Virus record (IMG/VR): IMGVR_UViG_3300046724_000152
Span: 1 to 64,000 of that record
Direction: 5' to 3' (one strand)
DNA length: 64,000 nt
Source of the DNA: a virus
Both the position numbers and the translations under genes were made by a program. Numbering within the stretch: position 1 is the stretch's first letter; every line of letters starts with the position of its first letter. The notes under the pieces were generated by a model. The model worked only from the letters and a program-made list of their open reading frames with translations. It was not told where the DNA came from and did not search any database. This document shows, in pieces, positions 130 to 62,793 of the stretch.

Positions 130-130
130 G

Positions 131-3117: not shown

Positions 3118-3120
3118 TTC

Positions 3121-5369: not shown

Positions 5370-5378
5370 AGGGAATCA

Positions 5379-6329: not shown

Positions 6330-6337
6330 AGGGAATC

Positions 6338-10992: not shown

Positions 10993-10993
10993 T

Positions 10994-11503: not shown

Positions 11504-11512
11504 GGGCATCAA

Positions 11513-33265: not shown

Positions 33266-34768
33266 CTAGTTGACGGTGTTGTTGATCTCGTTGACGGTTT
33301 CCTTGATATCGAGGGTGCGATCATTCACAATATCGACCATGGCATAAACGCTATTGACCTTCTCGGCCAAAACGCTGCCGCCCCTTTGACCAACAACCTC
33401 TTGCAGACTGGTCGCCAGCCGTTCAGCGGCAGTCGTTTTCTTGTTGTCCCGATTGAGCAGATTCAGATGATTCTTCATCGTCTTGGCTGCTATCACGAGA
33501 TCGATTTCCAGCAAGGTCTTGTCGCCACGGCTGACCATACCAAGCTTGGCCCGTTCCACACATTCACGAATGGAAGCTGGGATTTGACCGGCAAGCTCCT
33601 GGCCAGCCCTGGTTACCGATTGCATGTCGGTCAGCAGATAACCGGCATAATATCGGATCAGACGCTCAGCAGTTTCGGCGCTTGGAGCCCGCAGCGAAAT
33701 CACGGCATCGAGACGGCCAGGACGGAGGATCACTTGATCGAGCTTCTCCGCAAAGTTGGTCGTCAAGATCGTCATGATCTCGGCTCGCTTGGACAAAACG
33801 CCATCGATGGTATTGATCAGATCGTTGGCGCTTTCATCACGGTTCTCGGCAATCCGGTCGATATCCTCGGCAAACACTACTGCCGGGGAATAACGATTGG
33901 CGAACTCCAGAGCGGCTCGAAGGCCCTGGACCTTATCCAGCAACACAAAGGTCCAGCCGTTCTGGGCGCAGACCGCTGCGGTCATCCTTGAAGTCAACGA
34001 CTTGCCGGTTCCGTAGGGGCCTTCCAGTAAAATCCCGCGCTTCAGCGGAATCTTGTGAGCCCTGCATTCGTCGGTCTTTCTGATCGGGGTCAGGATCGAA
34101 GTCTCGATCTGCTCCATGATATCGGCATCGAGCAACACCGAGTCGGTGGTGGTGTCGGAGGCATCAAAGAATCCCGGAGGGTTATCCAGGTCCAGGTTGC
34201 CTTCCATATCGACGCCAAGCCGGATCGACTTGCCGCGATAGATCGACTCATCCTTCACAATGCGACGGGCTTCGGTCACAAGCTCAAGGATGACGTGGCG
34301 ATCCTTTTTCTTGATCACACCATGAACCAGGAAGCGGATCTTGCCTTTCTCCGAATAGAACATGGTGTTGATCGGGCTTTCGATACCCGGCAGAGCAAAC
34401 GATCCAAGCGGACACTGGATCACGTCGTCGTCCCGAATGCCGGTCTTGACCGAGACCATCTGCGGCGGCTTTGGACCAAACATGGTCATCACCGATTGGG
34501 GCGAGGCCCAGCCATAGAGCTTGGTCATGGCCTTGACGAAAGCCACGGCAGCATCGTGGGGATAACCCTCGATAAACTCCCTGACCTGGAAGTCCTGGTC
34601 TTCGTCTCGAACCAGACGAGTCAGGGCTTCGATGGCCTTGCGTGGCGGCATCTTGCCGGGATCGCCAGGAAGCGTAATGGCGCGGCCCTCATACTTGATC
34701 TCGGGATTGAGGGAGTCCCAGTTCAGCTTCTTGCTGGCAATCGCCACGTTAATGTCTTCTGTAGGCAT
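33266..34768 (-). CDS. AAA+ ATPase (classical AAA clade)
   Basis: Walker A GPYGTGKS, Walker B VVFAEDID, sensor TTN, SRH LRPGRLD; SD ACGGAG. Confidence 0.9.
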   Translation of the reverse strand: MPTEDINVAIASKKLNWDSLNPEIKYEGRAITLPGDPGKMPPRKAIEALTRLVRDEDQDFQVREFIEGYPHDAAVAFVKAMTKLYGWASPQSVMTMFGPKPPQMVSVKTGIRDDDVIQCPLGSFALPGIESPINTMFYSEKGKIRFLVHGVIKKKDRHVILELVTEARRIVKDESIYRGKSIRLGVDMEGNLDLDNPPGFFDASDTTTDSVLLDADIMEQIETSILTPIRKTDECRAHKIPLKRGILLEGPYGTGKSLTSRMTAAVCAQNGWTFVLLDKVQGLRAALEFANRYSPAVVFAEDIDRIAENRDESANDLINTIDGVLSKRAEIMTILTTNFAEKLDQVILRPGRLDAVISLRAPSAETAERLIRYYAGYLLTDMQSVTRAGQELAGQIPASIRECVERAKLGMVSRGDKTLLEIDLVIAAKTMKNHLNLLNRDNKKTTAAERLATSLQEVVGQRGGSVLAEKVNSVYAMVDIVNDRTLDIKETVNEINNTVN

Positions 34769-34867
34769 ATGTTTCTCCGTGTTAGCGGATAGATTTCCGC
34801 TCCATTGCCCCACTGGAGTTAACCAATGGGGCAACAGGCCGAAAACCTAGGTACAGGGGACCAGAAC

Positions 34868-40794: not shown

Positions 40795-41540
40795 GAGCGG
40801 TCATGAACCTTGAGGGAAGGCCTTATTTTTATGGCATTGGAATGCTGCCGGATGAAGGCTTTGGGTATGCCGCTGTGATTATAGCGGTGCTTTGTTATGC
40901 TCTGTTGGAGGCAGCCAGGGGAGCCATTGGCAAGCCTCCGCTCTGGTATCCGGTCTATCTCTGGTGGCGGAGCAGGCGTCGTGTCTAGGCCTTCGGTTCC
41001 CGAGGTGATCCAGTTCTATCTGCCCCGGACCCCGGAGGAGCGGTCGAGGTGGTCCGATCCCGGCAGGAAGGCCGAGGCCACCCTGCTGACCTGGATCCAC
41101 CGGATGCCCGACAACTTTGTCCTGGGTGCCGATGGCTACTGGTACTTCTATCCCGACATCGGGTTTCACATGAAACATCGAGCTGGAAAGAAAGGGTCCC
41201 ATCCCAATGGAGAAAAGGACGGGACCCCAGGCTGCTGAACTTAGGAGAATCAGCCCGCCTAATGTAGCAAAACCCGTGGCTGCTGGCTAGGCCGTTGTTC
41301 CCACAGGCCGAATTGTCTCCGACCTTGTAGTCGCTGATTCGCCCGAGGGTCTCCGAATGCACGGGATTGCACGGTGTCACCGTGCATTCCCGGTGATTGC
41401 AGGAAGCCGCATAACATGGGCCTTGCAGCGATTTCCGTGGATGGCGGTTTATGTTCGCTTGACCGCGATGTCTTTTCGGGACAGCTTCCATGGTGCTGCC
41501 GAATCAGAGCAGCGGACATGAACTTAGGAGACGTGGTAAA

Positions 41541-41990
41541 ATGGATATTATTGAGAAGGCTCAGGCGTTGCAGAATCTGGTGGCGGTTTATCGTGACCTT
41601 GGCGACATGGAGGCTTTGGATGCCATGTTGGCTGCGGTCAGGAAGGCCACCAGTGCAGAGCAGGAGGAGCAGGAGGAGCAGGCGGTTTCACGCGGGAGGC
41701 GGACTGGCATCAAGCGTGGACCTTACAAGACCAGCGGGATGCGGATGGCGCTGATGGGTTCCGGCGTGATCACGCTGGAGGACTTGGTGCCGCTGGTCGA
41801 GCAGCATCAGCATGTCCCGGGCCGCACTGTGGAGGCCAAGGGCGGCTGGCTGGCTGGCCAGATGCGCAAGAGCAAGCATGTCTACCGGGAGTGGCCGGAT
41901 GGCCGCTGGAGTCTGCGCAACGACAACTCTCCAGGACCGAAGGAAGTCCAGAAGGACGGACCCAACGGTTCGGCCCCGACCGGGAAGTAA
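41541..41990 (+). CDS. hypothetical protein, possible C-terminal winged helix
   Basis: SD AGGAG; ends DGRWSL. Confidence 0.55.
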   Translation: MDIIEKAQALQNLVAVYRDLGDMEALDAMLAAVRKATSAEQEEQEEQAVSRGRRTGIKRGPYKTSGMRMALMGSGVITLEDLVPLVEQHQHVPGRTVEAKGGWLAGQMRKSKHVYREWPDGRWSLRNDNSPGPKEVQKDGPNGSAPTGK

Positions 41991-42001
41991 CTGACAAAAA
42001 A

Positions 42002-42038
42002 CAGGGTCCCTGCCCACGGAGACAAGCAGGGACCCTGA
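42002..42038. terminator. hairpin between convergent transcription units
   Basis: CAGGGTCCCTGC...GCAGGGACCCTG preceded by an A-run (U-tract for the minus strand). Confidence 0.65.
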
Positions 42039-42086
42039 TGAGGATGCGTAGAGGGACGTTCAATCCAGCGAAGAGTCCGGATCGTA

Positions 42087-42392
42087 TCAGCACTCGGACT
42101 TGTTGGATACCCCCTGGGTCAGAACCCGGTTGATAACCTGACCGCCCTCGAAGCTGTCGAGATAGACGAACTTCTCGCCGTCATAGATCTTTCTGACAAC
42201 TCTGGTGTCAGTCATTGGATTGGCGTTATTCCGGTAGAGGTCCAGGGCGGTTTCCAAGGTGTCCATAATCTGCCCCAGGATGAACTTTGGCGGAGCCTCC
42301 GCTAGGGTAGTAGCTGCCACTTGTGCAGGTTTGGCAGCACTGGCGGCGACCGGAGCCCCGAGGATCAGGCCCAGCAGAGATCTGCGGTTCAT
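42087..42392 (-). CDS. small protein with twin-arginine-like signal peptide
   Basis: MNRRSLLGLILGAPVAASAA. Confidence 0.6.
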   Translation of the reverse strand: MNRRSLLGLILGAPVAASAAKPAQVAATTLAEAPPKFILGQIMDTLETALDLYRNNANPMTDTRVVRKIYDGEKFVYLDSFEGGQVINRVLTQGVSNKSEC

Positions 42393-42700
42393 GACGGCGT
42401 CACCGTTGTGACCGGCTTGTCCGGTGGCGGTAAGGGATAGGCCGCCGCTCGCTGAGCGAGGGCATCGACCTGGATCATGAACTGCTGGTCCATGTAGGCG
42501 CTGCTTTGCAGCGAGACCCTGGGAACCCAGGCCGTCATCGGTGCTTGTTTGTTTCTCCAGACTTTCAGCATCAGCGTGTCGAATGGATTGTCGACCTTGA
42601 TATCGGCAAGGAGGCTGAACTTGGCCGCCTCGGCGGTGACAATGGGCAGCAGGATCGCTTGGATCTGTTCGAGGCTCTGGCCTGGATCGAATGGGTTCAT
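42389..42700 (-). CDS. hypothetical protein
   Basis: ATGA-coupled to pseI. Confidence 0.6.
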   Translation of the reverse strand: MNPFDPGQSLEQIQAILLPIVTAEAAKFSLLADIKVDNPFDTLMLKVWRNKQAPMTAWVPRVSLQSSAYMDQQFMIQVDALAQRAAAYPLPPPDKPVTTVTPS

Positions 42701-43701
42701 TTCAGTGCATCTCCCCTGCGGTACTTCATCCCGGCCTTGCGGCCTATCAAGCTGGGCAACAGCTTGCATGGTAACCCATAGCCCGGTCGGATCGAACCGA
42801 TATTCTCCAGCGAGAACTTCTCGCCCTTCTTGATGTCCTGGATGGCATAGAGACTCCGCCTGACCTGCCGGGTCGGATTGCTGTCCATCTTGGTCGGCTG
42901 CATGGCGGCATAGGTCTGCCTGACCTGATTAACCATGTGGGCAAAATCCCGTGGTCCCATCGAGAACTCGTCGTCCTCGGACACCACGTCCGGCAGATGG
43001 CCGAAGTGCTTCTCGATGATGCAGGCCCCGACCGCTACTGCTGCAATTGGCGCAAGGCTTCCTTCAGAATGGTCCGACAGTCCGACAACAGATCGTGGAA
43101 GCAGTCGCTGCAAGTGTCGGATCCCGCCAAGGTTAGATGTTTCGATGGTTCCAGGATATTCCGACATACAGTGCAGAAACGCGGCTTTGCCTCCGGAAGC
43201 CTGATCCGCGTCTTTGATCTCCTGGTCATTGCCCATCCCTGTAGAAATGATCATCGGTTTGCCGGTCGAGGCGGCATATTCAATCAATGGAATATCCACC
43301 AGTTCCATCGAGGCGATCTTGTAAGCCGGACAGTTCAACTTTTCCAAATGATCGATAGCCGACATATCGAACACCGAACTGAAGATGGTAATCCCGGAAT
43401 CCTTGGCCACCCGGTACAGATCCGGATGCCAGTCGAATGGGGTATGCGCCTTCTTGTATAGCTCCCACAGGGTCCGGCCCTTCCACAGCCCCTCCTGCAC
43501 GATGAAGTCAGGCTTGTTCAGTTCGAGCGTAATGGTCTGCGGCTCATAGCACTGGGTCTTGATCGCCGAGGCCTTGGCTAATTTGGCCATCCGGATGATC
43601 TTCTTGGCGTTATCCAATGAGCCGCCATGGTTGCAGCTCATCTCGGCAATCACATAGGGCGGAAACTTCGGCCCGATATTGACCTTGTCGATCTTCATCA
43701 A
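42697..43701 (-). CDS. pseI: pseudaminic acid synthase (NeuB family with C-terminal SAF domain)
   Basis: IAEMSCNHGG, AHTPFDWH, YKIASME, IISTGM, GLSDHS, IEKH, RRSLY, IRPGYGL. Confidence 0.9.
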   Translation of the reverse strand: MMKIDKVNIGPKFPPYVIAEMSCNHGGSLDNAKKIIRMAKLAKASAIKTQCYEPQTITLELNKPDFIVQEGLWKGRTLWELYKKAHTPFDWHPDLYRVAKDSGITIFSSVFDMSAIDHLEKLNCPAYKIASMELVDIPLIEYAASTGKPMIISTGMGNDQEIKDADQASGGKAAFLHCMSEYPGTIETSNLGGIRHLQRLLPRSVVGLSDHSEGSLAPIAAVAVGACIIEKHFGHLPDVVSEDDEFSMGPRDFAHMVNQVRQTYAAMQPTKMDSNPTRQVRRSLYAIQDIKKGEKFSLENIGSIRPGYGLPCKLLPSLIGRKAGMKYRRGDALK

Positions 43702-43886
43702 TTCCCCTTCGGGTCATCTCTGAGCTTTATCAACTCGGCGATCACCGTATCGAGACTGCCTCGTGGAAGGACAATCTGTTTGACGAAGCAGTCGTCCTCG
43801 TCATAGGCGGCAAAGTGAATGCCGTCGCACTCATCGCAGGTGAAAATCTGGACACGAACACAGTCCTCATCGATTTGCAGGATCAT
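43698..43886 (-). CDS. small CxxC...H protein, paralogue A
   Basis: VQIFTCDECDGIHFAAYD. Confidence 0.6.
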   Translation of the reverse strand: MILQIDEDCVRVQIFTCDECDGIHFAAYDEDDCFVKQIVLPRGSLDTVIAELIKLRDDPKGN

Positions 43887-44087
43887 TCAATCCTCCTTTA
43901 GATTCAATTGATCCCGGATCTTCATCATCTCGACAATGACAGCGTTAAGATCGTCCCGTCGAATCAAGGCCTGTCCTCGCAGGGTCTCATCCGGTGCATA
44001 CATGGCGACGTGGATATCGGCGCAACTGTCGCACAGGAATACCGTGATATGACAGTCGTTGGCTTTAGCTTTGAATGGAATGTCCAT
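43887..44087 (-). CDS. small CxxC...H protein, paralogue B
   Basis: ITVFLCDSCADIHVAMYA. Confidence 0.6.
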   Translation of the reverse strand: MDIPFKAKANDCHITVFLCDSCADIHVAMYAPDETLRGQALIRRDDLNAVIVEMMKIRDQLNLKED

Positions 44088-44362
44088 CAGCCCTCCTTCA
44101 GCGCGGCATCGATCATGTCCATCCACCGCTCCGCCGTCATGTCATGCTCGTAGGTGTCGTTGCCCGCCAGCAGCATCTCTTCGGTTGGCACCCGCATCTC
44201 GAACAGGCAGGCCCTGGCGATCATCTTGACCCGGCCCTGGTCCAGGAAGTCCAGTTCTTCGTATCTGGGTGCCCCCTCCGGAGCGTTGACCTTCCAGATG
44301 GCCATTGCCACCCGCTCGATCATGGTCGGTTCCACTGGTTCGTCCATCTTTCCTCCAGTCAT
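44087..44362 (-). CDS. hypothetical phage protein
   Basis: MIERVAMAI...MRVPTEEMLLAG...WMDMIDAAL. Confidence 0.65.
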   Translation of the reverse strand: MTGGKMDEPVEPTMIERVAMAIWKVNAPEGAPRYEELDFLDQGRVKMIARACLFEMRVPTEEMLLAGNDTYEHDMTAERWMDMIDAALKEG

Positions 44363-44828
44363 CGATGTTGAACTTGCTCATGCCGATCAGCCGTTCCTGC
44401 GGCACCCACCAGCCCGACGAGTCGTTCTTCTTGTCGTAGGTCCAGAACTCGTGGCGCATGGTATCCTTCAGCATCATCCACCCGGCGATGACGAAGGTAA
44501 AACCGCGCCGTGGCGTGATCACCAGGACATAGGGCCGCTCCATGTCGGTATCGCTGGGATTGGTGATCAGATGGCCGCTTGCCACGGGCGTCGAGCGGAT
44601 CTGCACCCCGAGAACATCCGGAGCCTTGTAGCTGCCGTTGGTCGGCTGCCAATAGACGCCATACTGCTTGGCCAGCATCTGCTCGGCATTAGCTCCGTCG
44701 ATGTCACAGGACCAGTCGGACTTGGCGGCTTCGAGCCGGTTTGGCGAGCCACGCTCCAGCGAAGCGATACGGCGGTCAACACCACAGATGGCTCCGATCC
44801 GCAGTTCTGTCGGTGTGGCATCGATCAT
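44142..44828 (-). CDS. hypothetical protein, possible PD-(D/E)xK-like fold
   Basis: GANAEQMLAK...PDVLGVQIRST...YVLV. Confidence 0.5.
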   Translation of the reverse strand: MIDATPTELRIGAICGVDRRIASLERGSPNRLEAAKSDWSCDIDGANAEQMLAKQYGVYWQPTNGSYKAPDVLGVQIRSTPVASGHLITNPSDTDMERPYVLVITPRRGFTFVIAGWMMLKDTMRHEFWTYDKKNDSSGWWVPQERLIGMSKFNIDDWRKDGRTSGTDHDRAGGNGHLEGQRSGGGTQIRRTGLPGPGPGQDDRQGLPVRDAGANRRDAAGGQRHLRA

Positions 44829-44842
44829 GATCCTGTCTTCGG

Positions 44843-45973
44843 TCACTGGAGCGAGTCCCCTACTTCCTTGAAGATCTGACGCATGATCTTTCGCTGCTTC
44901 CTGTTGGGCGAATACGAGCAGACCTCGAAGGTCATCAGGTCGCAATCCTCCAGCGTTTCCGCTATTGGATGCACATCTGGCATGTTGAACACCCGATGTA
45001 GTGGCGGTGCGTAGCCCTCACGCAACGGCAGACCGAAGCTGTTGATGCGGGCAACGAACTGCCGACGATCCCAATGCCAGATCTTGGCGGCCCAGATGTA
45101 ATAGACATGATGGCAACCGTCCCGCTCGACCGGCGGATGGATGTTCGGATAGTCGAACACCATGTCGGTCAGCTCTAACGCCAGCTCCCTGCGATTCTCG
45201 ATGATACCCGGACCTTTGCTCAACTGCGCCGAGGCCAGAGCCGCAATCGGCTCCGTCATTCTGAGGTTCAGACCCATGATCCCAGGCCGCAGCTCGCCGT
45301 GATTGACGGCATCTCTTACCTTGAGGGCGAGGTCGTCGTCGTCGCTGACGACGATTCCTCCTTCCCCAGTCTGGAGATGTTTATGAATGTTAAGGCTAAA
45401 CACACCAAGATGGCCGACAGTGCCAGCGTAATGATCACCGACTTTGGCAAACGGACTCTGCGCATTGTCTTCGATCATCCAGACTTTGTTGTGGTCACAC
45501 CAACGTCTTATCTCTTCGAGATAAGCCGGATGACCGAACAGGTTGGTGACGATAACAGCTTTTGGCTTTCCCTTCGAACCGCCGATCTGCTTAAGATCCA
45601 TGGAGAATGTAACAGGCTCGATATCGATGAATTCTACATTTGCTCCAAGGATTTTAGCGCAGGATGCCGTGGCACTCATGGTGGTGGCAGGGCACCAGAC
45701 CCTATCTCCGGGCCCAATGCCGACCGCCATGCATGCCGCCATCAACCCCGATGTGGCAGAATTACAGGGCACGGCATGTCGTACACCGAACGTAGATTGC
45801 CACTCGTCTGCGAGGCGCTGAACCCAATAGCCACCAGCATGATGACCACCAAGATAACCACTAAAAGGACGGCCCAAGGTCGATAGTACATAGCTCCTCT
45901 CCAGCCAGTTGCGGGTCTCGAACGGCTTCAGCACCCCAAGCTTGCTCTTCAACTTCGGCCCTAGTTTGTGCAT
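44843..45973 (-). CDS. DegT/DnrJ/EryC1/StrS aminotransferase (PseC-like)
   Basis: NSATSGL, IEDNAQS, FSLNIHKHLQTGEGG (PLP lysine), GLNLRMTE. Confidence 0.88.
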   Translation of the reverse strand: MHKLGPKLKSKLGVLKPFETRNWLERSYVLSTLGRPFSGYLGGHHAGGYWVQRLADEWQSTFGVRHAVPCNSATSGLMAACMAVGIGPGDRVWCPATTMSATASCAKILGANVEFIDIEPVTFSMDLKQIGGSKGKPKAVIVTNLFGHPAYLEEIRRWCDHNKVWMIEDNAQSPFAKVGDHYAGTVGHLGVFSLNIHKHLQTGEGGIVVSDDDDLALKVRDAVNHGELRPGIMGLNLRMTEPIAALASAQLSKGPGIIENRRELALELTDMVFDYPNIHPPVERDGCHHVYYIWAAKIWHWDRRQFVARINSFGLPLREGYAPPLHRVFNMPDVHPIAETLEDCDLMTFEVCSYSPNRKQRKIMRQIFKEVGDSLQ

Positions 45974-46812
45974 CGTATGCTCTGGCACATCCTGGCGATG
46001 TCCTGCTCCATGTTCGGCAGGGTAAAGCCGAACTTGCTCTCGACCCTGGTCAGGTCCAGCCTTGTGTCGAGCGGACGTGGAATCCGCCCTGGGATACCGA
46101 CCGACTCCACCGGTCGCAGCCCCTTCAGGCTGTGGCCGAGGCCGTTGGCCAACAGCGCGGCAAACTTGGCTTTCGACATGCCGCTGGAAGAACCGAGATT
46201 GAAGGTGCCGGTTCGTGGCGTGTTGGCCATGGCCACCAGCCGTTCCGCCAAGGTCTGAGCCCACAGCGGACTGAACATGGCATCGGTATAGACATTGAAC
46301 TCGACGCCTGACTTCAGCTTGCCGATCATGAAATCGGCCAGACTGCTCCTGGCCGGTGATCGCGCTGACCCATAGAAATTGGTCCGCACGATCAGGTGGT
46401 TCTGCACCTTGGCGGCGGCAAACTCGCCCATGAACTTGCTCATGCCGTACATATTGATGGGATTCTCGCTCTTGGAATGCTCGCGGTGCGGGCCGTTGCC
46501 GGAGTACACCATGTCGGTTGATATATAAATCAACCGGCAGTTCCCCGGCATGTGAGCAGCGATGTTCTCCACCATGCCGCAGTTGTAGAGTACCGCCTTG
46601 TTCGGATCCTTCTCGCACTCATCGATGTCGGTCAGCGCCGCAGCATGAACGATCATCTGCGGCGCTGTTTTTGCCATCCACGTCCTGACGCTGTCCCAGT
46701 CGGTCAGATCGCAACTGCTTCTGGCCAAGCCCTCGACAGTGCCAAGCCTGGAGAATGCCATCTTCAGGTACGGCCCCAGCAGCCCGGTGTCGCCCGTGAC
46801 CAGGATCCTCAT
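45961..46812 (-). CDS. RmlD-like NAD(P)-dependent sugar-nucleotide reductase
   Basis: ILVTGDTGLLG, HAAALTDID.CE, YISTDMVY, YGMSK. Confidence 0.85.
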   Translation of the reverse strand: MRILVTGDTGLLGPYLKMAFSRLGTVEGLARSSCDLTDWDSVRTWMAKTAPQMIVHAAALTDIDECEKDPNKAVLYNCGMVENIAAHMPGNCRLIYISTDMVYSGNGPHREHSKSENPINMYGMSKFMGEFAAAKVQNHLIVRTNFYGSARSPARSSLADFMIGKLKSGVEFNVYTDAMFSPLWAQTLAERLVAMANTPRTGTFNLGSSSGMSKAKFAALLANGLGHSLKGLRPVESVGIPGRIPRPLDTRLDLTRVESKFGFTLPNMEQDIARMCQSIRCTN

Positions 46813-46829
46813 GTCCGTGTCAGCTCCTG

Positions 46830-47036
46830 TTACTTGGCGAGGTGGGTCCAGATCTTGCCGATCCGGTTGTCGTACTTCTGGATGTGGTTGATGACGCGAC
46901 CGGATTCCCTGGGTGCCTCGCGAACGGCGATGGCCAACAGCTCCATCCACTTGTCGTTGTTCCTGACCCTGATCTTGGCCATCCGGTCGATCAGGCTGCG
47001 CTTGGTCTTCGGTAACTCTTTGCGCTTCGTTCTCAT
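46830..47036 (-). CDS. small basic hypothetical protein
   Basis: IRVRNNDKWMELLAIA...; ATGA overlap with pseB. Confidence 0.55.
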   Translation of the reverse strand: MRTKRKELPKTKRSLIDRMAKIRVRNNDKWMELLAIAVREAPRESGRVINHIQKYDNRIGKIWTHLAK

Positions 47037-47986
47037 AACATCCCTCTCAGTTGTTCGATGGTTAACCAATCGACATTAGTGTCGCTGGTGTAGCGCCATC
47101 CTGGAGGCACACGATTCTCGTAGTCTCTTTTTTTATGTCCAGGCTGGTCGATGCAGTAGAAGTTTGCGAAATCGGTTGTGTTCAGGCTTTCGTCTTCGGT
47201 GATCAGTGTCTCGTGGATTTTTTCTCCAGGTCTGATGCCGGTGTTGAATTCCAGAAATCCGTAATCGTCGCAAACAGCAACTGCAAGATCTCTGATTCTA
47301 ATCGATGGAATCTTCGGTATGAGAATCTTCGAGTGAATTCCGACACTAGCCAACTCCTCTGCGTAGAGGACCAGCTTAACGCTCTGATCCATGGTGATCC
47401 AGAACCGCGTCATTCTTTCATCGGTAACCTTGAGGACTTTGCCCTCCGCCTTTCGCTTCTTAAATAATGGAAGAACAGAACCCCGCGAACCGGCAACATT
47501 GCCATATCGCACAACATTGTAATGGCACCCGCCAGCGGCCAAGGCATTCGCTGCGACAAATATCTTTTCCGCTGCAAGCTTCGATGCACCATAAAGGTTG
47601 ATTGGATTAACGGCCTTATCTGTCGATAGTGCGACAACTCGCTGGACCTTAGCTCTGAGCGAAGCCTTAACCACATTCTCAGCCCCTGTGACATTGGTGG
47701 CGATGCATTCGGTTGGATTGTACTCGGCGGTCGGCACGATCTTCAGCGCGGCGGCATGGATCACGGTATCGATGCCACGCATTGCCATCTCCAGACGGTC
47801 GAGGTCGCGGACATCGCCAATGAAGAAGCGCAATCGCTCGTCGTTGAAGCTATGCGCCATCTCCTCCTGGGTATGTTCGCCCCTGGAGTAGATTGCGATT
47901 CGCTCGACACTCGGATCCTTGAGTATCCGACTGGCGAAGGCTTGGCCGAACGAGCCTGAGCCGCCAGTGATCAGGACGGATTTCAT
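47033..47986 (-). CDS. pseB: UDP-N-acetylglucosamine 4,6-dehydratase (inverting)
   Basis: ITGGSGSFG, FFIGDVRD, HAAALKIVPTAEYNP, STDKAVNPINLYGASK, RYGNVAGSRGSV, MTRFWIT, GIRPGEK. Confidence 0.92.
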   Translation of the reverse strand: MKSVLITGGSGSFGQAFASRILKDPSVERIAIYSRGEHTQEEMAHSFNDERLRFFIGDVRDLDRLEMAMRGIDTVIHAAALKIVPTAEYNPTECIATNVTGAENVVKASLRAKVQRVVALSTDKAVNPINLYGASKLAAEKIFVAANALAAGGCHYNVVRYGNVAGSRGSVLPLFKKRKAEGKVLKVTDERMTRFWITMDQSVKLVLYAEELASVGIHSKILIPKIPSIRIRDLAVAVCDDYGFLEFNTGIRPGEKIHETLITEDESLNTTDFANFYCIDQPGHKKRDYENRVPPGWRYTSDTNVDWLTIEQLRGML

Positions 47987-50019
47987 GCGGACTTTCTTAA
48001 GGATTGACCGGCGATAGTACCTTTGAGGCGACTCGACATGATGCCTTGCTGCAAGACATCATTGATTACATCCATGGTATGTTTATAGGCTCGACGGATG
48101 ATCTCGATCTCTGGATCTTTAATGGCGTAAGATACGCAATTAGCATTCAGGATCAGCACACCCATCCGCGCCATTTCCTGGGTGAACAGAGCCTGGATCT
48201 GTTCCTTGGTTGCGCCAAGGAAATCATGAACGTCCAGTTTCAGGAGCGGTGGCGAGCCACGAAACGCAATTGGACCAGAATAGTGTGATGTTCTTTCAAG
48301 TAGCGGTGCTTCAGATCGGATCTTCAATCCAACAGAGTATAGATGATCAAGGACGTTCTCCCGTTCCATCTTCTTGATAGTGGCGAGTGCAGCAGCCATC
48401 GACAGAGTGTCACCAAAGAAGGTGCCGGAGAAGAACACGCCGAGGTGGCCGTTCAGCATCTTCATGATCCCGGCATCACCGACCAGAGCCGAGATCGGCA
48501 TTCCGTTGGCCATCGACTTGCCGAAGCAAGCAAGATCGGGTGTGACACCAAAATACTCCTGACCACCGCCCATGGCGTAACGGAAGCCAGTCTGGATCTC
48601 ATCGAAGATCAGAATGATTTCGTTCCTGGTACACCATGACCGTAATGCCTGGAGGTATTCCCTGTCGTGGGTTGGCTCGACAATGACGGCGGCGACATCG
48701 CTCCAGTCTTCGCCCCAGTCTCTTAATTCATCGAGATCACCGTATTCGATCTTGTGTGACAGATTGGTTACGGATTCTGGAATTCCTTTGTTCTTTCCTT
48801 CCAGTGTTGAGGCTGACCAATCAGCCCAGCCATGGTAGGATCCGATTAGAATATGATCCCGTTCGGTGTAGGCCCTGGCCAGCCTGACTGCCGCCGATGT
48901 CACATCGGTACCGGACTTGCCGAACTGGACCTTATCGGCACAAGGAATCAGGTCGCACAGCTTCTCGCTTAACTCACATTCAAGCTTGGTGGCCAGACTG
49001 AAGCTCATGCCGCAGTTCAGTTGCCGCCGCACCGCCTCATCAACGTCAGGATCGCGGTAACCTAGGACAACAGGAAGTAGAGCATTAACAAGATCAACAT
49101 AGTCGTTCCCATCAACATCAAAAATCCTCGCACCATCGCCATGAGAGGCGAATAGTGGAGCCCCGCCCCTGGGATACCAAAGAGCAGACTTCGAGTATGT
49201 TTGGGACCCAAGGGGAATTGTCCTGGTGGCTCGTACCAGCAGCTCATCTGACCGTTGATATGTTCGTTCTGGTAATCGTTCTCCAGCGAGGTCCTGGTAG
49301 AACCGCTCATTTCGAATGGCTCCAGCATTGATTTGCCTCAGGTGTGGGTTGTCATCGAGGATCCGCATGATATGCATGCATGTCGGCGGGAAAGCCAGCG
49401 GCAGTTGCTTGGCGATTTCCTTGCACAGCTCGTAGTCTTCCTTGGTGTCGAGGACCCATCGCTCCTTGTGTGCCCCAGGAAACGGGCAAATCAGGTATTC
49501 CTGGGAGAACCGATCCCGGTTGCGGATGATCCACTGTGTCACACAGTCCCGATCTGTCTTCCTGGTGGTCTCTCTCCAGGCTGTTTCCAGCGCATCGAAG
49601 GTGAGACACTCGACATCCAATCCGTCTGGCCATGTCGGCTGGTTGGAACAGTACGAAGCACCCGTCGTCTTTTGTAGTTGGACGACCTGTCCGACCACAT
49701 AAGGGTCGAGGAACGGACAATCACAGGTGATTCGCAGGATAATGTCGGCTTTATAGTCTTTCGCACATTGATAATAGCGGTTCAGCACATCCTTTTCTGA
49801 GCCACGGAAGCAATCGATGCGGTTCTGTCTGCAATCCTTGGCTAGAACATCATCGGATTCCAGCGTGGTGGTGGCGATCACCACCTGATTGACTCCTGGA
49901 GAGTTGACTAACGCCCGCCAGACCCAGCGATACACCGGCATGCCTCCGAGTGGAGCCATCACCTTGCCAGGGAACCGCGTCGAGCCCATCCTAGCCTGGG
50001 CAATCGCAACGACTTTCAT
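47983..50019 (-). CDS. fusion: SpsF/PseF-type cytidylyltransferase plus class III aminotransferase
   Basis: QARMGSTRFPGKV, FRGSEKDVLNRY, RITCDCP; then DVDGNDYVD, FDEIQTGFR, PDLACFGKSMANGMP. Confidence 0.9.
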   Translation of the reverse strand: MKVVAIAQARMGSTRFPGKVMAPLGGMPVYRWVWRALVNSPGVNQVVIATTTLESDDVLAKDCRQNRIDCFRGSEKDVLNRYYQCAKDYKADIILRITCDCPFLDPYVVGQVVQLQKTTGASYCSNQPTWPDGLDVECLTFDALETAWRETTRKTDRDCVTQWIIRNRDRFSQEYLICPFPGAHKERWVLDTKEDYELCKEIAKQLPLAFPPTCMHIMRILDDNPHLRQINAGAIRNERFYQDLAGERLPERTYQRSDELLVRATRTIPLGSQTYSKSALWYPRGGAPLFASHGDGARIFDVDGNDYVDLVNALLPVVLGYRDPDVDEAVRRQLNCGMSFSLATKLECELSEKLCDLIPCADKVQFGKSGTDVTSAAVRLARAYTERDHILIGSYHGWADWSASTLEGKNKGIPESVTNLSHKIEYGDLDELRDWGEDWSDVAAVIVEPTHDREYLQALRSWCTRNEIILIFDEIQTGFRYAMGGGQEYFGVTPDLACFGKSMANGMPISALVGDAGIMKMLNGHLGVFFSGTFFGDTLSMAAALATIKKMERENVLDHLYSVGLKIRSEAPLLERTSHYSGPIAFRGSPPLLKLDVHDFLGATKEQIQALFTQEMARMGVLILNANCVSYAIKDPEIEIIRRAYKHTMDVINDVLQQGIMSSRLKGTIAGQSLRKSA

Positions 50020-50915
50020 TCCAGTCCCGCCTGTTTACGAACCTCAAGACAGATTTTGAGAACCTCAAGACCTTCTTCACCGGTACAGCCGATGGTTTCT
50101 TTGCCATCGATGCGGTCCAGGAATGCCTGCATTTCTTCAACATAATTTTCGTTCCAGGTGTCGAAGCCTTGATAACTATCAATAGGTCGCTCAATACCGA
50201 AGACGGCACCATTCCTATTCACAAGGTCACAGGAGATGCGACCATTATCACCAATGATGGTGAAGAACCTTAATTCCGGTCTTGTAACGTAATCCAGATG
50301 AACCGTAGTTCGACATCCTATGTCATGCGTTAAGAGAATATCCGATATATCGTCCTTGCCATTAGTGAGGCAAGTCGATGAGCCAGCAACGATAGCAGGG
50401 CCAAGAAGGTAAAGAGCAAGATCCAACTCATGGCTCCAATTGAGAATAACACCATCGCGTAGATAATGAGGTCGGTCGTTGTATTGACCGAGTGTAAAAT
50501 TGGCCCAGATTGGCTTTCCAATAATCCCAGCACCTAACCACTCCTTGGCTTTCTTGACGCAGCTATGGTAGCGGAGATTGTAGCCAACCATTGCTCTTTG
50601 GTTAAACGAGCTTGGCTCAACTATCGCCGGTAGAAGTATGTCGTATTCTTGTTGTGTGGTGGCGATTGGTTTCTCAATTAATATCGGTTTTGGATGTGTC
50701 ACTATAATATGTTTATAGTGCTGATCTGTCGGGCTGGCGATGACGAATGCATCCAAATTTATCAGCCTTGATTCCGGCCATAGCCTCCAGAAGGAAGGGA
50801 AATCCTCTGCGGCCACCTCGGGATCAAAACCAACAACATTATGGCCCATAGCCATGAGATTCTTGGCATGCCTCATGCCGATACTGCCAAGCCCAATCAC
50901 ACCGACTGTTTTCAT
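50016..50915 (-). CDS. Gfo/Idh/MocA oxidoreductase
   Basis: GLGSIGMRH, IEKP, VGYNLRY, SHELD. Confidence 0.88.
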   Translation of the reverse strand: MKTVGVIGLGSIGMRHAKNLMAMGHNVVGFDPEVAAEDFPSFWRLWPESRLINLDAFVIASPTDQHYKHIIVTHPKPILIEKPIATTQQEYDILLPAIVEPSSFNQRAMVGYNLRYHSCVKKAKEWLGAGIIGKPIWANFTLGQYNDRPHYLRDGVILNWSHELDLALYLLGPAIVAGSSTCLTNGKDDISDILLTHDIGCRTTVHLDYVTRPELRFFTIIGDNGRISCDLVNRNGAVFGIERPIDSYQGFDTWNENYVEEMQAFLDRIDGKETIGCTGEEGLEVLKICLEVRKQAGLE

Positions 50916-51064
50916 TTAGGCACACAATAGAGGTATTTCCATTTATCTTTATGAAGAGTCTCCATTGCGGCGCGACATGATTGCTCCGAATTAAACTCAA
51001 TAGAGTAAGGTACATATCCGCTATAAACAGCAACAAACATTATCAAGATCCATGGTGTCATCAT
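50912..51064 (-). CDS. small secreted/membrane peptide
   Basis: WILIMFVAV...EFNSEQSCRAA...CVPK; coupled overlaps. Confidence 0.55.
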   Translation of the reverse strand: MMTPWILIMFVAVYSGYVPYSIEFNSEQSCRAAMETLHKDKWKYLYCVPK

Positions 51065-51666
51065 TTCTTCTCCGGGAATGCGTTTTTGAGATCCTTCTTG
51101 AGGATCGTAACGCTGGTTTCGTTTTGAATGGTTCGCCCATAGAGCGAATAGCCGGGATGGCTGAGCCACAGATTGGCAAAGTCGTAGTGATACGAGAACA
51201 GCCCAGGCTTATGCTTGTAGGGGACTCGGTGTGCAGCGGCTGGCGTGAAGTCATGGACGATGAGAAATCCACCATCCTGTAGAACCTGATCTCCCTCGAA
51301 TGCGATTTCGAAATAGTCCTCGGGGTCACAGAGATAGAGACACCATCCGTAGATCAGAAGATCTGCCAAGTTTGGTGAGAAATGATGCGAGAGCTTGTCT
51401 GCGGTGCCAGCCCAGACCTGGACCTTGGATTGTCCTCTGGTCGAGATATAACACGGATCAATCCCCTCGACCTCACAGTCGTATCTCTGTTCGATGATGG
51501 CGAGCCGCCAGCCATTGGAACAGCCAATCTCAACCGCTCTCTTTGGTTTGATGTTGTATACCTCAAGCGCTTGCAGGACCGGATCGTTCTTTCCGGTCAG
51601 CTTGGCTTCATTGCGCTTCAGCCATTCGGCTCCCTCGCCAAGGGCGAAGACTCTAGATTGCTTCAT
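51061..51666 (-). CDS. class I SAM-dependent methyltransferase
   Basis: VEIGCSNGWRL, GIDP, GWCLYLCD, GGFLIVHDF. Confidence 0.85.
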   Translation of the reverse strand: MKQSRVFALGEGAEWLKRNEAKLTGKNDPVLQALEVYNIKPKRAVEIGCSNGWRLAIIEQRYDCEVEGIDPCYISTRGQSKVQVWAGTADKLSHHFSPNLADLLIYGWCLYLCDPEDYFEIAFEGDQVLQDGGFLIVHDFTPAAAHRVPYKHKPGLFSYHYDFANLWLSHPGYSLYGRTIQNETSVTILKKDLKNAFPEKK

Positions 51667-52178
51667 GGTGCGAATTTTCCAAAGGTCCACATGCTCATCG
51701 GCTGACCGTCAAACAGGAAATGACCGGGAACGACTGCCTCTTGGCTCATTCCATACTCGGTGCAAATTTTGATCATTTTGACGTTTGCTACCATGCAGCC
51801 CGCCTCGATTTTTCTGATTTGCTTTCTGGCAAACAGATAATCACAGACCGCCTTCCAGGCTTCGTAGCCATAGCCGTTGCCCCACTGGGTCCTGTCTCCG
51901 ATCATGATGGCGACATTGGCGAGGTTGTTTTTGTCGTCCACATTGACTGATATCGATCCAATCGCGGCATAGGATGTCAGCAACCGAATCGTATTGGTGC
52001 TGTTAGGTTCCACGGTCGCGGCGGAGTACCAATAATCAAGTTGGGTGTCCGCTGAGTGGGTGTAGTGCCGGTGTTCCGAGTATTTGACGACCTCTGGATC
52101 GTTCAGCCATTCCGCAAATTGCGGTGCATCCGAAGTGTGGACCGGACCAATCTCTAGACGTGGAGATTTCAGAATCAT
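51663..52178 (-). CDS. RimJ/RimL-type GNAT N-acetyltransferase (PseH-like)
   Basis: WLNDPEVVKY, IMIGDRTQWGNGYGYEAW, RKIEAG. Confidence 0.8.
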   Translation of the reverse strand: MILKSPRLEIGPVHTSDAPQFAEWLNDPEVVKYSEHRHYTHSADTQLDYWYSAATVEPNSTNTIRLLTSYAAIGSISVNVDDKNNLANVAIMIGDRTQWGNGYGYEAWKAVCDYLFARKQIRKIEAGCMVANVKMIKICTEYGMSQEAVVPGHFLFDGQPMSMWTFGKFAP

Positions 52179-52339
52179 TTCTTTTTTACCGTTGCTTTGA
52201 TGTGTCTGACCACCTCCAGAAGCTGCTGTGCCAGGAACAGGATCTCCGGAGACTCGGCGGAGCGGCCACCCCAGCGGGTGAGGTAATCCACCTTGTTTGT
52301 TAGTTGTCTCTCAAGCTCGATGGCCTCGTCCTTGGTCAT
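52175..52339 (-). CDS. small hypothetical protein, first gene of the leftward sugar operon
   Basis: SD GAGGAGG, MTKDEAIELE..., ATGA overlap. Confidence 0.6.
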   Translation of the reverse strand: MTKDEAIELERQLTNKVDYLTRWGGRSAESPEILFLAQQLLEVVRHIKATVKKK

Positions 52340-52362
52340 GGTACCTCCTCGATCATGGGTAG

Positions 52363-52373
52363 CCCAATTTGGG
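52363..52373. promoter_or_regulatory. CCC-N5-GGG operator-like site between the sugar operon and terL
   Basis: CCCAATTTGGG is the exact reverse complement of 21863-21873. Confidence 0.5.
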
Positions 52374-52432
52374 TTTGATTGCCCACAACTATCTCGCACC
52401 CTATAGTTCGCTATCCACAGGTCCGTGCTTTC

Positions 52433-54025
52433 ATGATCCTCAACAAGATGGCCAAGGCTGCTACGCAGATTGCCAAGTTGAAGGAGCGTGATGTCTATGA
52501 AGGCACCCTGATCGAGTTTGCCGAATACGTCTGGCCGGTGGTGGAACCTGCGATTCCCTTCATCCGTGGCTGGGCCATCGAGGCGATTGCCGAGCATCTC
52601 CAGGCTGTTACCGATGGCTACATCAAGCGGCTGTTGATGAACGTGCCGCCGGGATTCACCAAGTCCCTGATGACCGATGTGTTCTGGCCCGCCTACGAGT
52701 GGGGTCCCAAGAACATGCCGTGGCTGCGGTATGTCTGCGCTTCCTACTCCAACCACCTGACCGAACGAGACAACATGCGATGCCGCAACATCGTGATCTC
52801 GGATCGCTATCAGCGGATGTGGGGCTCCCGGTTCAAGATCTCCAACGAGCAGTTCACCAAGATCAAGTTCGCCAACGACCATACCGGGTGGAAGCTGGCG
52901 ACCTCGGTGGGCGGCATCGGCGTCGGCGAGCGGGGGGATCGGTTCATCATTGACGACCCGAACAACACCATGGACATGGAGTCCGAACAGGTCCGGGACA
53001 CCACCAACCTGTGGTTTACCGAGGTCGTTCCCGACCGCCTGAACAACCCCCAGGAAAGCGCAATTGTCATTATACAACAAAGGCTTCATGAGGATGATGT
53101 GAGCGGAATCGCGCTGTCTCGGGAGATGGGATACACCCACCTGATGATCCCGATGGAGCATGACACATCAAGGCATTGTGTGACTGTTTTGGGGCTAAAT
53201 GATGATAATAGCCCCAAGACCTGGGAGGATCCACGGAAAGAAGACGGCGAGCTGGCTTGGCCGGAGCGGTTTACCCAGAAGGTTTGCGAAGATCTGGAGC
53301 GGGATAAGGGTCCCCACGCCTGGGCCGGTCAGTACATGCAGAGCCCGGAACCCCGTGGCGGGTCGATCATCAAGCGGGATTTCTGGCAGTTGTGGGAGGA
53401 AGACAAGTTTCCGGAGTTTGAGTACATCCTGGGGTCGGTGGACACCGCCTATACGGACAAAGAAGAGAACGATCCCAGTGCCTTGACCATCTGGGGTGTG
53501 TTCCGCGACATCAACAAGAACCCCAAGATGATGCTGATGTATGCTTGGCAGGAAAGATTACAGTTTCACGAGCTGCTTCAGAAGCTTATCGCCACCTGCA
53601 CCATCGGCATCGGACCCAAGAAGGGCCCCCAGTTCCGGGTGGACCGGCTGCTGATCGAGTCCAAGGCCAGCGGGCTGTCGGTTGTCCAGGAACTGCATCG
53701 CCTGATCCAGGCCACCGGCAAGATGGGTGTCGAGTCGAATTCTGTCAAAGGCGACAAATACGCCCGACTGCAATCGGTTCAGCATCTATTCTCCGATGGC
53801 ATGATCTATGCGCCTGACCGCTCCTTTGCCGACATGGTGATCGATCAGTGTGCGGTGTTTCCCAAGGGATCACGCGACGACTTGGTCGACTCGACCTCTC
53901 AGGCGCTGAAGTATCTGCGTGACACCGGCTTTGCATTGCGGCGCGAGGAATACTCTGTAGAAGCTCATGAGGAAATGCTGTACCGTGGTCCATCTTATAA
54001 CGCTCCGATTTACGGTAATTATTGA
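52433..54025 (+). CDS. terL: terminase large subunit
   Basis: NVPPGFTKS (Walker A), IIDDP (Walker B), QRLHEDD, nuclease SVDTAY, IESKASG, DDLVDSTSQAL. Confidence 0.95.
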   Translation: MILNKMAKAATQIAKLKERDVYEGTLIEFAEYVWPVVEPAIPFIRGWAIEAIAEHLQAVTDGYIKRLLMNVPPGFTKSLMTDVFWPAYEWGPKNMPWLRYVCASYSNHLTERDNMRCRNIVISDRYQRMWGSRFKISNEQFTKIKFANDHTGWKLATSVGGIGVGERGDRFIIDDPNNTMDMESEQVRDTTNLWFTEVVPDRLNNPQESAIVIIQQRLHEDDVSGIALSREMGYTHLMIPMEHDTSRHCVTVLGLNDDNSPKTWEDPRKEDGELAWPERFTQKVCEDLERDKGPHAWAGQYMQSPEPRGGSIIKRDFWQLWEEDKFPEFEYILGSVDTAYTDKEENDPSALTIWGVFRDINKNPKMMLMYAWQERLQFHELLQKLIATCTIGIGPKKGPQFRVDRLLIESKASGLSVVQELHRLIQATGKMGVESNSVKGDKYARLQSVQHLFSDGMIYAPDRSFADMVIDQCAVFPKGSRDDLVDSTSQALKYLRDTGFALRREEYSVEAHEEMLYRGPSYNAPIYGNY

Positions 54026-62789: not shown

Positions 62790-62793
62790 GCCG

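Follow-up and report, generated by a model that had tools for sequence, protein, structure and literature searches.

The genome of the soil phage IMGVR_UViG_3300046724_000152 (75.5 kb, CheckV-100% complete) carries an operon encoding most of a pseudaminic-type nonulosonate pathway that ends in a cytidylyltransferase. We put at roughly 0.55 the probability that the phage makes a CMP-activated, tailored sugar of this type, by a pathway lacking only PseG, and glycosylates its own particle proteins. The sugar probably carries an extra (methyl)amino group and probably coats the virion. The window analyzed is the 64,000 nucleotides from position 1 of this record. What was computed or observed comprises gene content, catalytic motifs, operon structure, conservation across the clade and the predicted fold of a transferase-like protein, and from these we infer each chemical step, the order of the steps, the aminated position and the acceptor.

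The operon (42697-52178, minus strand, as are all operon features below) is a single, tightly coupled transcription unit in which neighboring genes overlap by no more than 4 nt at nine junctions, implying translational coupling. It begins 200 bp from terL, the oppositely oriented large terminase gene (52379-54025, plus strand; phrog_38, E 6e-80) that opens the late structural operon, and the arrangement around this divergent intergenic region (52179-52378) is kept in the clade and bridged by contigs from independent runs. The operon end has two coupled small ORFs of 103 and 101 aa (42087-42700; 4-nt overlaps), for which clade comparison reveals no counterpart in relatives, and is closed by a strong intrinsic terminator-like hairpin (42002-42037) with a 16-bp stem, including nine G-C pairs, and then TTTTTT. 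A preliminary description had named five enzymes, translationally coupled, interleaved with small ORFs and divergent from terL; all of this is borne out, with each enzyme recovered by profile matches at its position, and missing from that list were an RmlD-like reductase, a Gfo/Idh/MocA oxidoreductase, a SAM methyltransferase and a fused class-III aminotransferase domain. The pathway has nine recognizable enzyme genes, seven of them clade-wide.

Checking the enzymes against profile models gives firm assignments for PseB and PseI. PseB, an inverting UDP-GlcNAc 4,6-dehydratase of 317 aa (47033-47986), scores 409.9 bits with TIGR03589, above the NCBI equivalog cut-off of 407.75, and matches H. 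pylori FlaA1/PseB (2gn4; E 2.1e-89), with which its catalytic motif STDKA...YGxxK aligns. PseI, a 333-aa pseudaminic acid synthase of the NeuB family (42697-43698; Pfam NeuB, E 7e-66), also exceeds its NCBI equivalog cut-off (TIGR03586, 367.5 bits against 340.25), while its score with the NeuB model is 239 against a cut-off of 399.65. The labels 'PseC-like' and 'PseH-like' given to two other enzymes stand at the superfamily level and fail as claims of orthology. The 376-aa DegT/DnrJ/EryC1 sugar aminotransferase (44843-45973; Pfam DegT, E 2e-50), in which the residues around the PLP lysine (FSLNIHK) line up with those of PDB homologues, has PseC as its best NCBIfam model, but at 145.7 bits it lies far below the cut-off of 423.5. 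The GNAT N-acetyltransferase of 171 aa encoded by the first gene of the operon (51663-52178; Pfam Acetyltransf_3, E 5.4e-21; found at ~35 clade loci) reaches only 16.7 bits with the PseH model TIGR03585 (cut-off 93.1). Judged from sequence, these two presumably fill the PseC and PseH roles. Of the label 'SpsF/PseF-type' for the cytidylyltransferase the first half holds (CTP_transf_3); orthology with PseF is rejected, the score being 14 bits where the cut-off is 205.7. These three proteins score far short of the equivalog cut-offs for PseC, PseH and PseF, which counts against our preferred reading.

The cytidylyltransferase forms the first part (approximately residues 1-228; CTP_transf_3, E 9e-28; PDB 6oew, E 8e-27) of a 678-aa fusion protein (47983-50019) whose other domain (approximately residues 252-676; Aminotran_3, E 2e-48) is a class-III PLP aminotransferase. 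The closest solved relatives of this second domain after HemL (E 8e-60) are GenB-type C-6' sugar aminotransferases (7lld, E 4e-42). The FGK (K501) and FDE motifs show no variation in the alignment. The fusion protein has 2493 homologues and occurs on 171 IMG/VR contigs. The 299-aa Gfo/Idh/MocA NAD(P) oxidoreductase (50016-50915), with N- and C-terminal Pfam GFO_IDH_MocA domains and the Rossmann motif GVIGLGSIG, matches archaeal UDP-GlcNAc 3-dehydrogenase (NF040723) over its full length (E 1e-19), is present at 36 clade loci, and presumably oxidizes a sugar hydroxyl. The class-I SAM-dependent methyltransferase (201 aa, 51061-51666), which has weak Pfam Methyltransf_23/11 matches, retains SAM motif I (VLEIGCxNGW) and GIDPS in an alignment of 30 clade sequences and is kept at ~33 clade loci. 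The RmlD-like SDR 4-ketoreductase (283 aa, 45961-46812; TIGR01214 rmlD, 165.4 bits, below the cut-off of 224), whose nearest PDB entries are all dTDP-4-dehydrorhamnose reductases, belongs to the accessory genes of one sub-lineage; of the IMG/VR loci, just those of this phage and one relative (L003) have it at full length, and its ~35 homologues (43-67% identity) include several on contigs of 60-77 kb. Rossmann motifs are intact in PseB, the oxidoreductase and the RmlD-like reductase, as are cofactor motifs in the DegT enzyme, the class-III aminotransferase domain and the methyltransferase.

Among the interspersed small ORFs, s50 (50 aa, 50912-51064), which overlaps both neighbors by 4 nt, and s66 (43887-44087) and s62 (43698-43886), each with AAGGAGG upstream of its ATG, have no family match and no conservation at the clade loci (by tblastn for s50). 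A 68-aa ORF of unknown function, s68 (46830-47036), overlaps the PseB stop by 4 nt; it too lacks a family match, and has weak tblastn matches at ~13 clade loci. The unknown protein u234 (44142-44846) has a single match, to PHROG 18407 (unknown function; E 9e-9), and none in Pfam or NCBIfam; it is missing from all related loci and is outside the conserved pathway.

The same gene order is found on ~40 IMG/VR contigs of a phage clade of 70-77 kb, in which the core GNAT-MT-GFO-CT/AT3-PseB-DegT-PseI, divergent from terL, shows 35-77% amino-acid identity across ~40 loci, indicating purifying selection. Relatives carry additional genes (a formyltransferase, a PIG-L deacetylase with an ATP-grasp protein, a second GNAT and an extra methyltransferase), which are classic nonulosonate N-acyl tailoring enzymes. 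The earlier view that the block is part of the phage rather than flanking host DNA is upheld by the completeness of the genome, by this synteny, and by contigs from independent soil runs that bridge both operon borders, spanning 41023-43038, 43713-50470 and 51299-56000; depth across these stretches is flat and the differences number 0-3. A chimeric join of host DNA to a phage contig has a negligible probability: nothing was found in its support, the terL-adjacent order repeated in ~40 independent viral contigs and the bridging contigs refute it, the exact RmlD-like protein occurs on 19 contigs, and the G+C content of the block is near the genome mean.

A candidate for the transferase lies ~11 kb from the sugar operon in the late operon, where the major head protein (60567-61481, plus strand; phrog_371, E 2.4e-7) is 70-89% identical among clade loci. 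The gene (63175-64131, plus strand, running past the window end at 64000) encodes a 318-aa protein with a predicted Maf/CstII fold, a candidate CMP-nonulosonate transferase. Its AF2 model averages a pLDDT of 77.7 and exceeds 85 over most of the core (residues 81-240); the N-terminus is disordered and the C-terminus carries a long helix. It matches CstII with an E-value of 1.8e-6 (Foldseek), and by VIA-align it gives Z scores of 11.1 with Maf (5mu5) and 10.9 with CstII, aligning 146-152 residues at an rmsd of 2.7-3.1. Every top structural match is a CMP-sugar transferase; kinase folds of the MptE-like HPPK and thiamin pyrophosphokinase type rank below them, with Z 8-9.6. Sequence family searches gave no match, and at the sequence level the protein could not be related to Maf, GT42 or any solved sialyltransferase; the shared fold of the model does not in itself establish function. 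All 17 near-complete clade genomes have this gene together with the sugar operon, and it is the only glycosyltransferase-like gene in the phage genome, in which no GT2, GT1 or GT28 member was found. It is flanked by two conserved Ser/Thr-rich proteins: p131 (62776-63171, plus strand; 21% Ser/Thr), a small virion-operon protein immediately 5' of it with synteny at 43 of 59 loci, is a candidate acceptor of the sugar, and p172 gives no more than a generic beta-sandwich for which no structure matches with confidence. This result for p172, and the fact that Ser/Thr richness is common among phage tail proteins, weigh against the virion-glycosylation reading.

The canonical CMP-Pse5Ac7Ac pathway of Campylobacter jejuni and Helicobacter pylori uses PseB, PseC, PseH, PseG, PseI and PseF. 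The phage set, all of it phage-carried, resembles this in its PseB and PseI and in having enzymes for the PseC, PseH and PseF roles; it departs from the plain PseB-C-H-G-I-F route that had been proposed in using non-orthologous enzymes for those roles, in fusing the cytidylyltransferase to a class-III aminotransferase, in adding the oxidoreductase, the methyltransferase and (in this phage) the RmlD-like reductase, and in lacking PseG. The absence of a PseG-like hydrolase, already remarked upon, is confirmed: TIGR03590, Glyco_tran_28_C and Epimerase_2 gave no match at E <= 10 in a six-frame search of the whole genome, and this genome and five complete relatives yielded neither PseG nor another UDP-sugar hydrolase, which leaves a gap in the pathway as proposed.

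In this scheme PseB would dehydrate and invert UDP-GlcNAc, the DegT enzyme would aminate C4, the GNAT would acetylate the C4 amine, and a host PseG or an unrecognized hydrolase would take off UDP, after which PseI would condense the 6-deoxy-hexose with PEP. The Gfo/Idh/MocA oxidoreductase could then oxidize a secondary hydroxyl, most likely at C8 because a methyl ketone results, the class-III aminotransferase domain would convert the ketone to an amine, the SAM methyltransferase would methylate the sugar, and the fused SpsF-type domain would add CMP. The additional RmlD-like reductase of this sub-lineage probably acts on a keto intermediate, reducing it to an epimer or hydroxy variant. The Maf/CstII-fold protein would move the sugar onto Ser/Thr residues of virion proteins late in infection. 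Because the clade-wide core includes the oxidoreductase and the methyltransferase, the phage probably makes a modified nonulosonate and not Pse5Ac7Ac. In the literature we came across neither a described triamino nonulosonate, a lack that weighs against the scheme, nor a paper on this operon.

The sugar could instead be placed on the host capsule, LPS or flagellin during infection, by the Maf/CstII-fold protein or a host transferase, so blocking superinfection or keeping progeny off debris. Pseudaminic acid is found on all three structures, the operon belongs to the leftward, non-structural transcription unit, and the genome encodes a tailspike with a pectate-lyase fold, suggesting a polysaccharide receptor. 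The Pse of the A. baumannii capsule is indeed altered by prophage EpaA and EpaB (PMC12053666). We nonetheless consider the host surface an unlikely target, in that no tyrosine integrase was found in the phage genome, making lysogenic or otherwise lasting conversion unlikely, and that genome showed no Wzy, Wzx or other genes for assembling polysaccharide. The evidence leans toward virion coating because the sole glycosyltransferase-like gene has a Maf/CstII fold and sits in the structural operon, between conserved virion-operon proteins.

It is rather improbable that the operon only boosts the metabolism of a Pse-producing host supplying PseG and transferases, with the 318-aa protein being, for example, an MptE-like kinase-fold or structural protein. 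The clade-wide absence of PseG, the secondary kinase-fold matches and the lack of a sequence family would fit, but seven to nine genes retained in ~40 genomes is a high cost for boosting, the transferases outrank the kinases, and the GTAPSS and GID motifs are, we presume, reminiscent of GT42/Maf. Still less probable is that the Maf/CstII-fold protein substitutes for PseG, with water as acceptor and free hexose released, leaving the phage without its own transferase: PseG too is a hydrolase with a glycosyltransferase fold, co-occurrence with the operon is strict and the clade conserves no other candidate hydrolase, yet this fold class binds CMP-sugars, not UDP-sugars, and an intermediate step would be expected inside the coupled operon rather than in a distant late structural unit. 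Attachment of the sugar to phage DNA bases to evade restriction is very improbable, as no thymidylate-synthase-like hydroxymethylase or known DNA glycosyltransferase family was found in the genome and we know of no precedent for nonulosonate on DNA; in its favor are a diversity of tailoring genes typical of an arms race and the known glycosylation of DNA by phages (PMC5889632).

Several known systems resemble parts of this one. Maf (5mu5) and the GT42 enzymes CstII and Cst-I are the best structural matches of the 318-aa protein, and, as in flagellin glycosylation islands, its gene is genetically linked to a Pse-type pathway; unlike Maf and GT42 it lacks sequence-level similarity, is encoded amid phage head and tail genes and has a predicted activity, and it is much shorter than Maf (318 versus 632 aa). 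Mycobacteriophages that glycosylate their virions use host nucleotide sugars, whereas this phage carries its own CMP-nonulosonate pathway and a different transferase fold. They likewise have glycosyltransferases in the structural operon, as mentioned in PMC11256854, and such placement inside a virion gene block implies modification of particle proteins. In A. baumannii, prophage EpaA (a CTP_transf_3 and aldo-keto reductase fusion) and EpaB (an SDR) convert Pse5Ac7Ac to its 8-epimer, showing Pse modification at C8 (PMC12053666); this system too is phage-borne, with CTP_transf_3 fused to an enzyme handling a keto-nonulosonate and a separate oxidoreductase partner. The domain fused in EpaA serves epimerization whereas the class-III aminotransferase here presumably serves amination, and the Epa prophages act on the host capsule and depend on host psaA-F, whereas this phage has its own PseB, DegT, GNAT and PseI. 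The LPS locus of Legionella pneumophila serogroup 6 has neighboring GNAT, PseG, class III aminotransferase and acylneuraminate cytidylyltransferase genes (PMC3694923), so that, as in the phage, a GSA-aminomutase-like aminotransferase adjoins a nonulosonate cytidylyltransferase, and DegT, CapD-type dehydratase and oxidoreductase genes are also there; these cellular genes are separate and include PseG, unlike the fused phage genes without it. Among the best 80 cellular loci the fused cytidylyltransferase-aminotransferase occurs in one, a MAG contig.

The IMG/VR virus record is 75,507 bp long and is rated 100% complete by CheckV; the window covers its first 64,000 bases. Rightward transcription of the structural genes begins at terL (52379-54025, plus strand; phrog_38, E 6e-80) and proceeds through the portal, the major head protein (60567-61481, plus strand; phrog_371), a tailspike with a pectate-lyase fold and large internal proteins, wrapping around to positions 1-17844, and the whole region between 52178 and about 18000 is read leftwards. 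The leftward unit opens with the sugar genes at 42697-52178, which fill its first 9.5 kb. We found no tyrosine integrase in the genome and saw no ORF of DNA-polymerase size in the leftward unit; outside the sugar operon, a 522-aa ATPase (33266-34834, minus strand; phrog_10440, E 7e-98) is the largest of the non-structural proteins.

All of the operon genes lie on the minus strand, and in order of transcription they encode a GNAT (51663-52178), a SAM methyltransferase (51061-51666), a 50-aa ORF (s50), a Gfo/Idh/MocA oxidoreductase (50016-50915), a 678-aa fusion of an SpsF-type cytidylyltransferase with a class-III aminotransferase (47983-50019), PseB (47033-47986), a 68-aa ORF coupled to PseB (46830-47036), an RmlD-like reductase (45961-46812), a DegT aminotransferase (44843-45973), a 234-aa protein with two small ORFs (s66 and s62), and PseI (42697-43698). 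Two further small ORFs, neither of them conserved, follow PseI and precede a strong terminator-like hairpin (42002-42037, minus strand; a 16-bp stem followed by T6), giving a transcription unit about 10.2 kb long. At nine junctions neighbouring genes overlap by no more than 4 nt, and the translational coupling reported in the preliminary description is therefore real.

That description also regarded the block as part of the phage, naming a chimeric assembly with host DNA as the alternative, which can now be discarded on two grounds. The first is the recurrence of the arrangement beside terL: the nearest IMG/VR relative, a 76,041-bp contig whose terL is 81% identical, has the same set of genes in identical order with 56-77% amino acid identity, and the order from terL through the GNAT, methyltransferase, oxidoreductase, fusion, PseB, DegT and PseI genes is kept in about 40 of the 171 IMG/VR contigs that carry the fusion, at 35-77% identity. 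The fusion protein has 2493 homologues in all, many of them on contigs of 60-77 kb. The second is that positions 41023-43038, 43713-50470 and 51299-56000 are spanned, at even depth and with 0-3 differences, by contigs of four runs that carry no flag as the source. At least 24 metagenome runs from soil and rhizosphere contain near-identical DNA; most are from a single year and thus probably belong to one campaign. Among 50,697 phage records there is no megablast match to the block and there are only three weak tblastn matches to PseI, so that no cultured relative is available for use.

Using the NCBI equivalog cut-offs for the Pse models as the criterion for orthology, we find that two of the five Pse enzymes proposed previously stand and that the other three assignments hold at the superfamily level only. 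PseB, the inverting UDP-GlcNAc 4,6-dehydratase, scores 409.9 bits with TIGR03589 (cut-off 407.75) and aligns with Helicobacter pylori PseB (2gn4; E 2e-89) across the catalytic motif, and PseI, the pseudaminic acid synthase, scores 367.5 bits with TIGR03586 (cut-off 340.25) and falls well under the cut-off of the NeuB model. By contrast, the DegT aminotransferase has PseC as its best model at 145.7 bits against a cut-off of 423.5; H. pylori PseC is absent from its 38 PDB matches at E <= 1e-15, and KdnA (5k8b) is matched in the same search. The GNAT is a generic RimL/AAC(6′)-like protein rather than a PseH orthologue (TIGR03585, 16.7 bits against 93.1), which could fill the PseH role by analogy, and the cytidylyltransferase is an SpsF/KdsB-like CTP_transf_3 domain rather than a PseF orthologue (TIGR03584, 14 bits against 205.7). 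Cofactor motifs are intact in all of the enzymes checked.

The absence of a recognizable PseG was noted at the outset and persists: six-frame searches of the whole genome give no match to PseG (TIGR03590), to the GT28 C-terminal family (PF04101) or to the NeuC/LegG-type epimerases (PF02350), and PseG is likewise absent from five other complete genomes of the clade (70-77 kb phages with the same operon order), four of which have terminal repeats. A search for a substitute among the small ORFs had been suggested, but no relative has s66, s62 or the 234-aa protein, and none of the three gives an informative family match, which removes them as candidates; lacking conservation, these three and s50 are not hidden steps of the pathway. 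The methyltransferase-like gene can be dismissed as a disguised hydrolase in view of its conserved SAM motifs. The hydrolase step is thus either supplied by the host or performed by an unrecognised protein.

Judged by sequence conservation, the clade-wide core consists of the GNAT, methyltransferase, oxidoreductase, fusion, PseB, DegT and PseI genes, with the oxidoreductase, the fused aminotransferase and the methyltransferase as well conserved as PseB and PseI. The 68-aa ORF is matched weakly in about 13 loci of the clade, where its position within the cluster varies. Of the IMG/VR loci, only this one and that of the nearest relative have the RmlD-like reductase at full length, although it has about 35 homologues (43-67% identity), several of them on contigs of clade size (60-77 kb), and it is best seen as a recurrent accessory of one sub-lineage. 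Other clade members have insertions of a formyltransferase, of a PIG-L deacetylase with an ATP-grasp ligase, of a second GNAT or of a second methyltransferase, and enzymes of these kinds are the usual means by which the N-acyl groups of nonulosonates are varied. Five loci (L016, L017, L019, L026 and L032) encode a shortened PseI-like synthase, 212-230 aa long, whose match to the PseI model stops after the first ∼140 positions, and in another (L009) a NeuB-like synthase takes the place of PseI, suggesting that within the clade the synthase has been exchanged or has decayed. The operon is a conserved scaffold with diversified tailoring, and the variability of the tailoring genes suggests diversifying selection on the glycan.

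Two of the core components without a counterpart in the pseudaminic acid pathway, the oxidoreductase and the aminotransferase half of the fusion, have a parallel in Acinetobacter baumannii prophages, where EpaA, a CTP_transf_3 domain joined to an aldo-keto reductase, acts with the SDR EpaB to turn Pse5Ac7Ac into its 8-epimer, as is experimentally supported (PMC12053666). The domain architecture of the phage genes resembles that pattern, with CTP_transf_3 N-terminal to an enzyme that may handle a keto-nonulosonate and with a separate oxidoreductase, but the phage has Aminotran_3 where EpaA has Aldo_ket_red, and its oxidoreductase belongs to Gfo/Idh/MocA and not to the SDRs. After HemL, the closest solved relatives of the class-III domain are GenB-type C-6′ sugar aminotransferases, and KdnA (5k8b) is not among its best 60 matches. 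By analogy, the oxidoreductase might oxidise a secondary hydroxyl of the nonulosonate; at C8 this would yield a methyl ketone, a typical substrate for class-III aminotransferases, and transamination, methylation and CMP activation could follow. We found no report of a triamino nonulosonate in the literature.

The fusion appears to be rare in cells, and in viruses it extends beyond a single phage clade. At least 600 cellular loci were matched, and of the best 80 one has the fused form, a 39.6 kb contig of an Alphaproteobacteria MAG (L081) in which it adjoins PseI-like and DegT-like genes; this may be a binned phage or prophage, and gives a weak hint of an alphaproteobacterial host. The other 79 match the aminotransferase domain alone at 29-39% identity and are not accompanied by the rest of the pathway; ordinary hemL is probably among them, and rarer cellular fusions may exist beyond these 80. 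In the LPS locus of Legionella pneumophila serogroup 6 the aminotransferase and cytidylyltransferase genes are separate and adjacent and PseG is present (PMC3694923), whereas the phage genes are fused and are not accompanied by PseG. A second, unrelated viral group in IMG/VR (L039-L080, many of 32-40 kb) has a cytidylyltransferase-class III aminotransferase fusion at 27-36% identity, usually with a PseB-like gene ∼2 kb upstream and sometimes with a NeuB-family gene.

A candidate for attaching the sugar is a 318-aa protein encoded in the late operon (63175-64131, plus strand), whose AlphaFold model has a predicted sialyltransferase-like (DUF115/GT42) fold. The pLDDT averages 77.7 and exceeds 85 across most of the core (residues 81-240), and the best structural matches are to Maf of Magnetospirillum (5mu5; Z 11.1, rmsd 2.7 over 152 residues by VIA-align) and to the CstII/Cst-I sialyltransferases (Z 10.6-10.9, up to 21% identity by VIA-align; Foldseek E 1.8e-6 and probability 1.0 for CstII), with thiamin and pterin pyrophosphokinases ranking below these. 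The relationship to Maf and GT42 enzymes is one of modelled fold without membership at the sequence level: the protein has no Pfam or PHROG match, a profile search against PDB sequences returned nothing relevant, and MptE-like PF01973 has no match anywhere in the genome. Since the genome contains no GT2, GT1 or GT28 gene, this is the only candidate transferase. It has 914 homologues (55-72% identity), is present in all 17 near-complete records carrying the sugar operon, and lies downstream of the major head gene between the same two small Ser/Thr-rich proteins (for one of these, p131, synteny holds in 43 of 59 loci). The model of the other, p172, is a beta-sandwich that matches nothing in the PDB with confidence (best E 1.3e-3).

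We consider it somewhat better than an even chance (about 0.55) that a modified pseudaminic-type sugar in CMP-activated form is made by the phage early in infection and is placed on virion proteins late. Production of some CMP-nonulosonate is quite probable, and more secure than the target. Sialic-acid-like sugars are regarded as cell products, found on flagella, capsules and LPS. A rival to virion attachment is that the phage-made sugar remodels the host surface; alternatively, the operon merely boosts a host that already produces pseudaminic acid, in which case the hydrolase could be the host's own. A further rival is that the fold-matched 318-aa protein is itself the missing hydrolase. Modification of DNA with the sugar is disfavoured because no hydroxymethylase was found in the genome.

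Returning to synthesis followed by virion attachment, a more specific version is distinctly tentative: that this large clade of soil phages, without PseG, makes an undescribed pseudaminic-type acid bearing a (methyl)amino group in place of the hydroxyl at C8 (or C4), introduced through the oxidoreductase and a fusion found almost only in phages, and O-links it to its own virion proteins with a new sequence family of Maf/CstII-fold transferases. Our literature searches found no paper on phage-encoded nonulosonate pathways coupled to virion genes and nothing directly relevant on glycosylation of phage virions. A whole lineage of abundant soil and rhizosphere phages spends ∼10 kb, 13% of the genome, on predicted nonulosonate synthesis. 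Should the sugar end up on the particle, no earlier phage would be known to construct a nonulosonate coat of its own and attach it, which has a bearing on stability, adsorption, immune and lectin recognition, and host range. For glycobiology, the module offers a possible PseG-free route, a fusion that may yield a new amino-nonulosonate, and a candidate new transferase family.

Two minor features complete the description. A 328-aa ORF at 52175-53161 (minus strand) was considered as a hidden enzyme, but it overlaps terL in antisense, has no family match and is probably spurious. The tail module contains a 946-aa pectate-lyase-fold tailspike (66472-69312 of the genome; 4472-7312 of L002) and a 259-aa lectin-like Laminin_G_3 protein (73169-73948; L002 11169-11948), which together hint at a polysaccharide receptor on the host.
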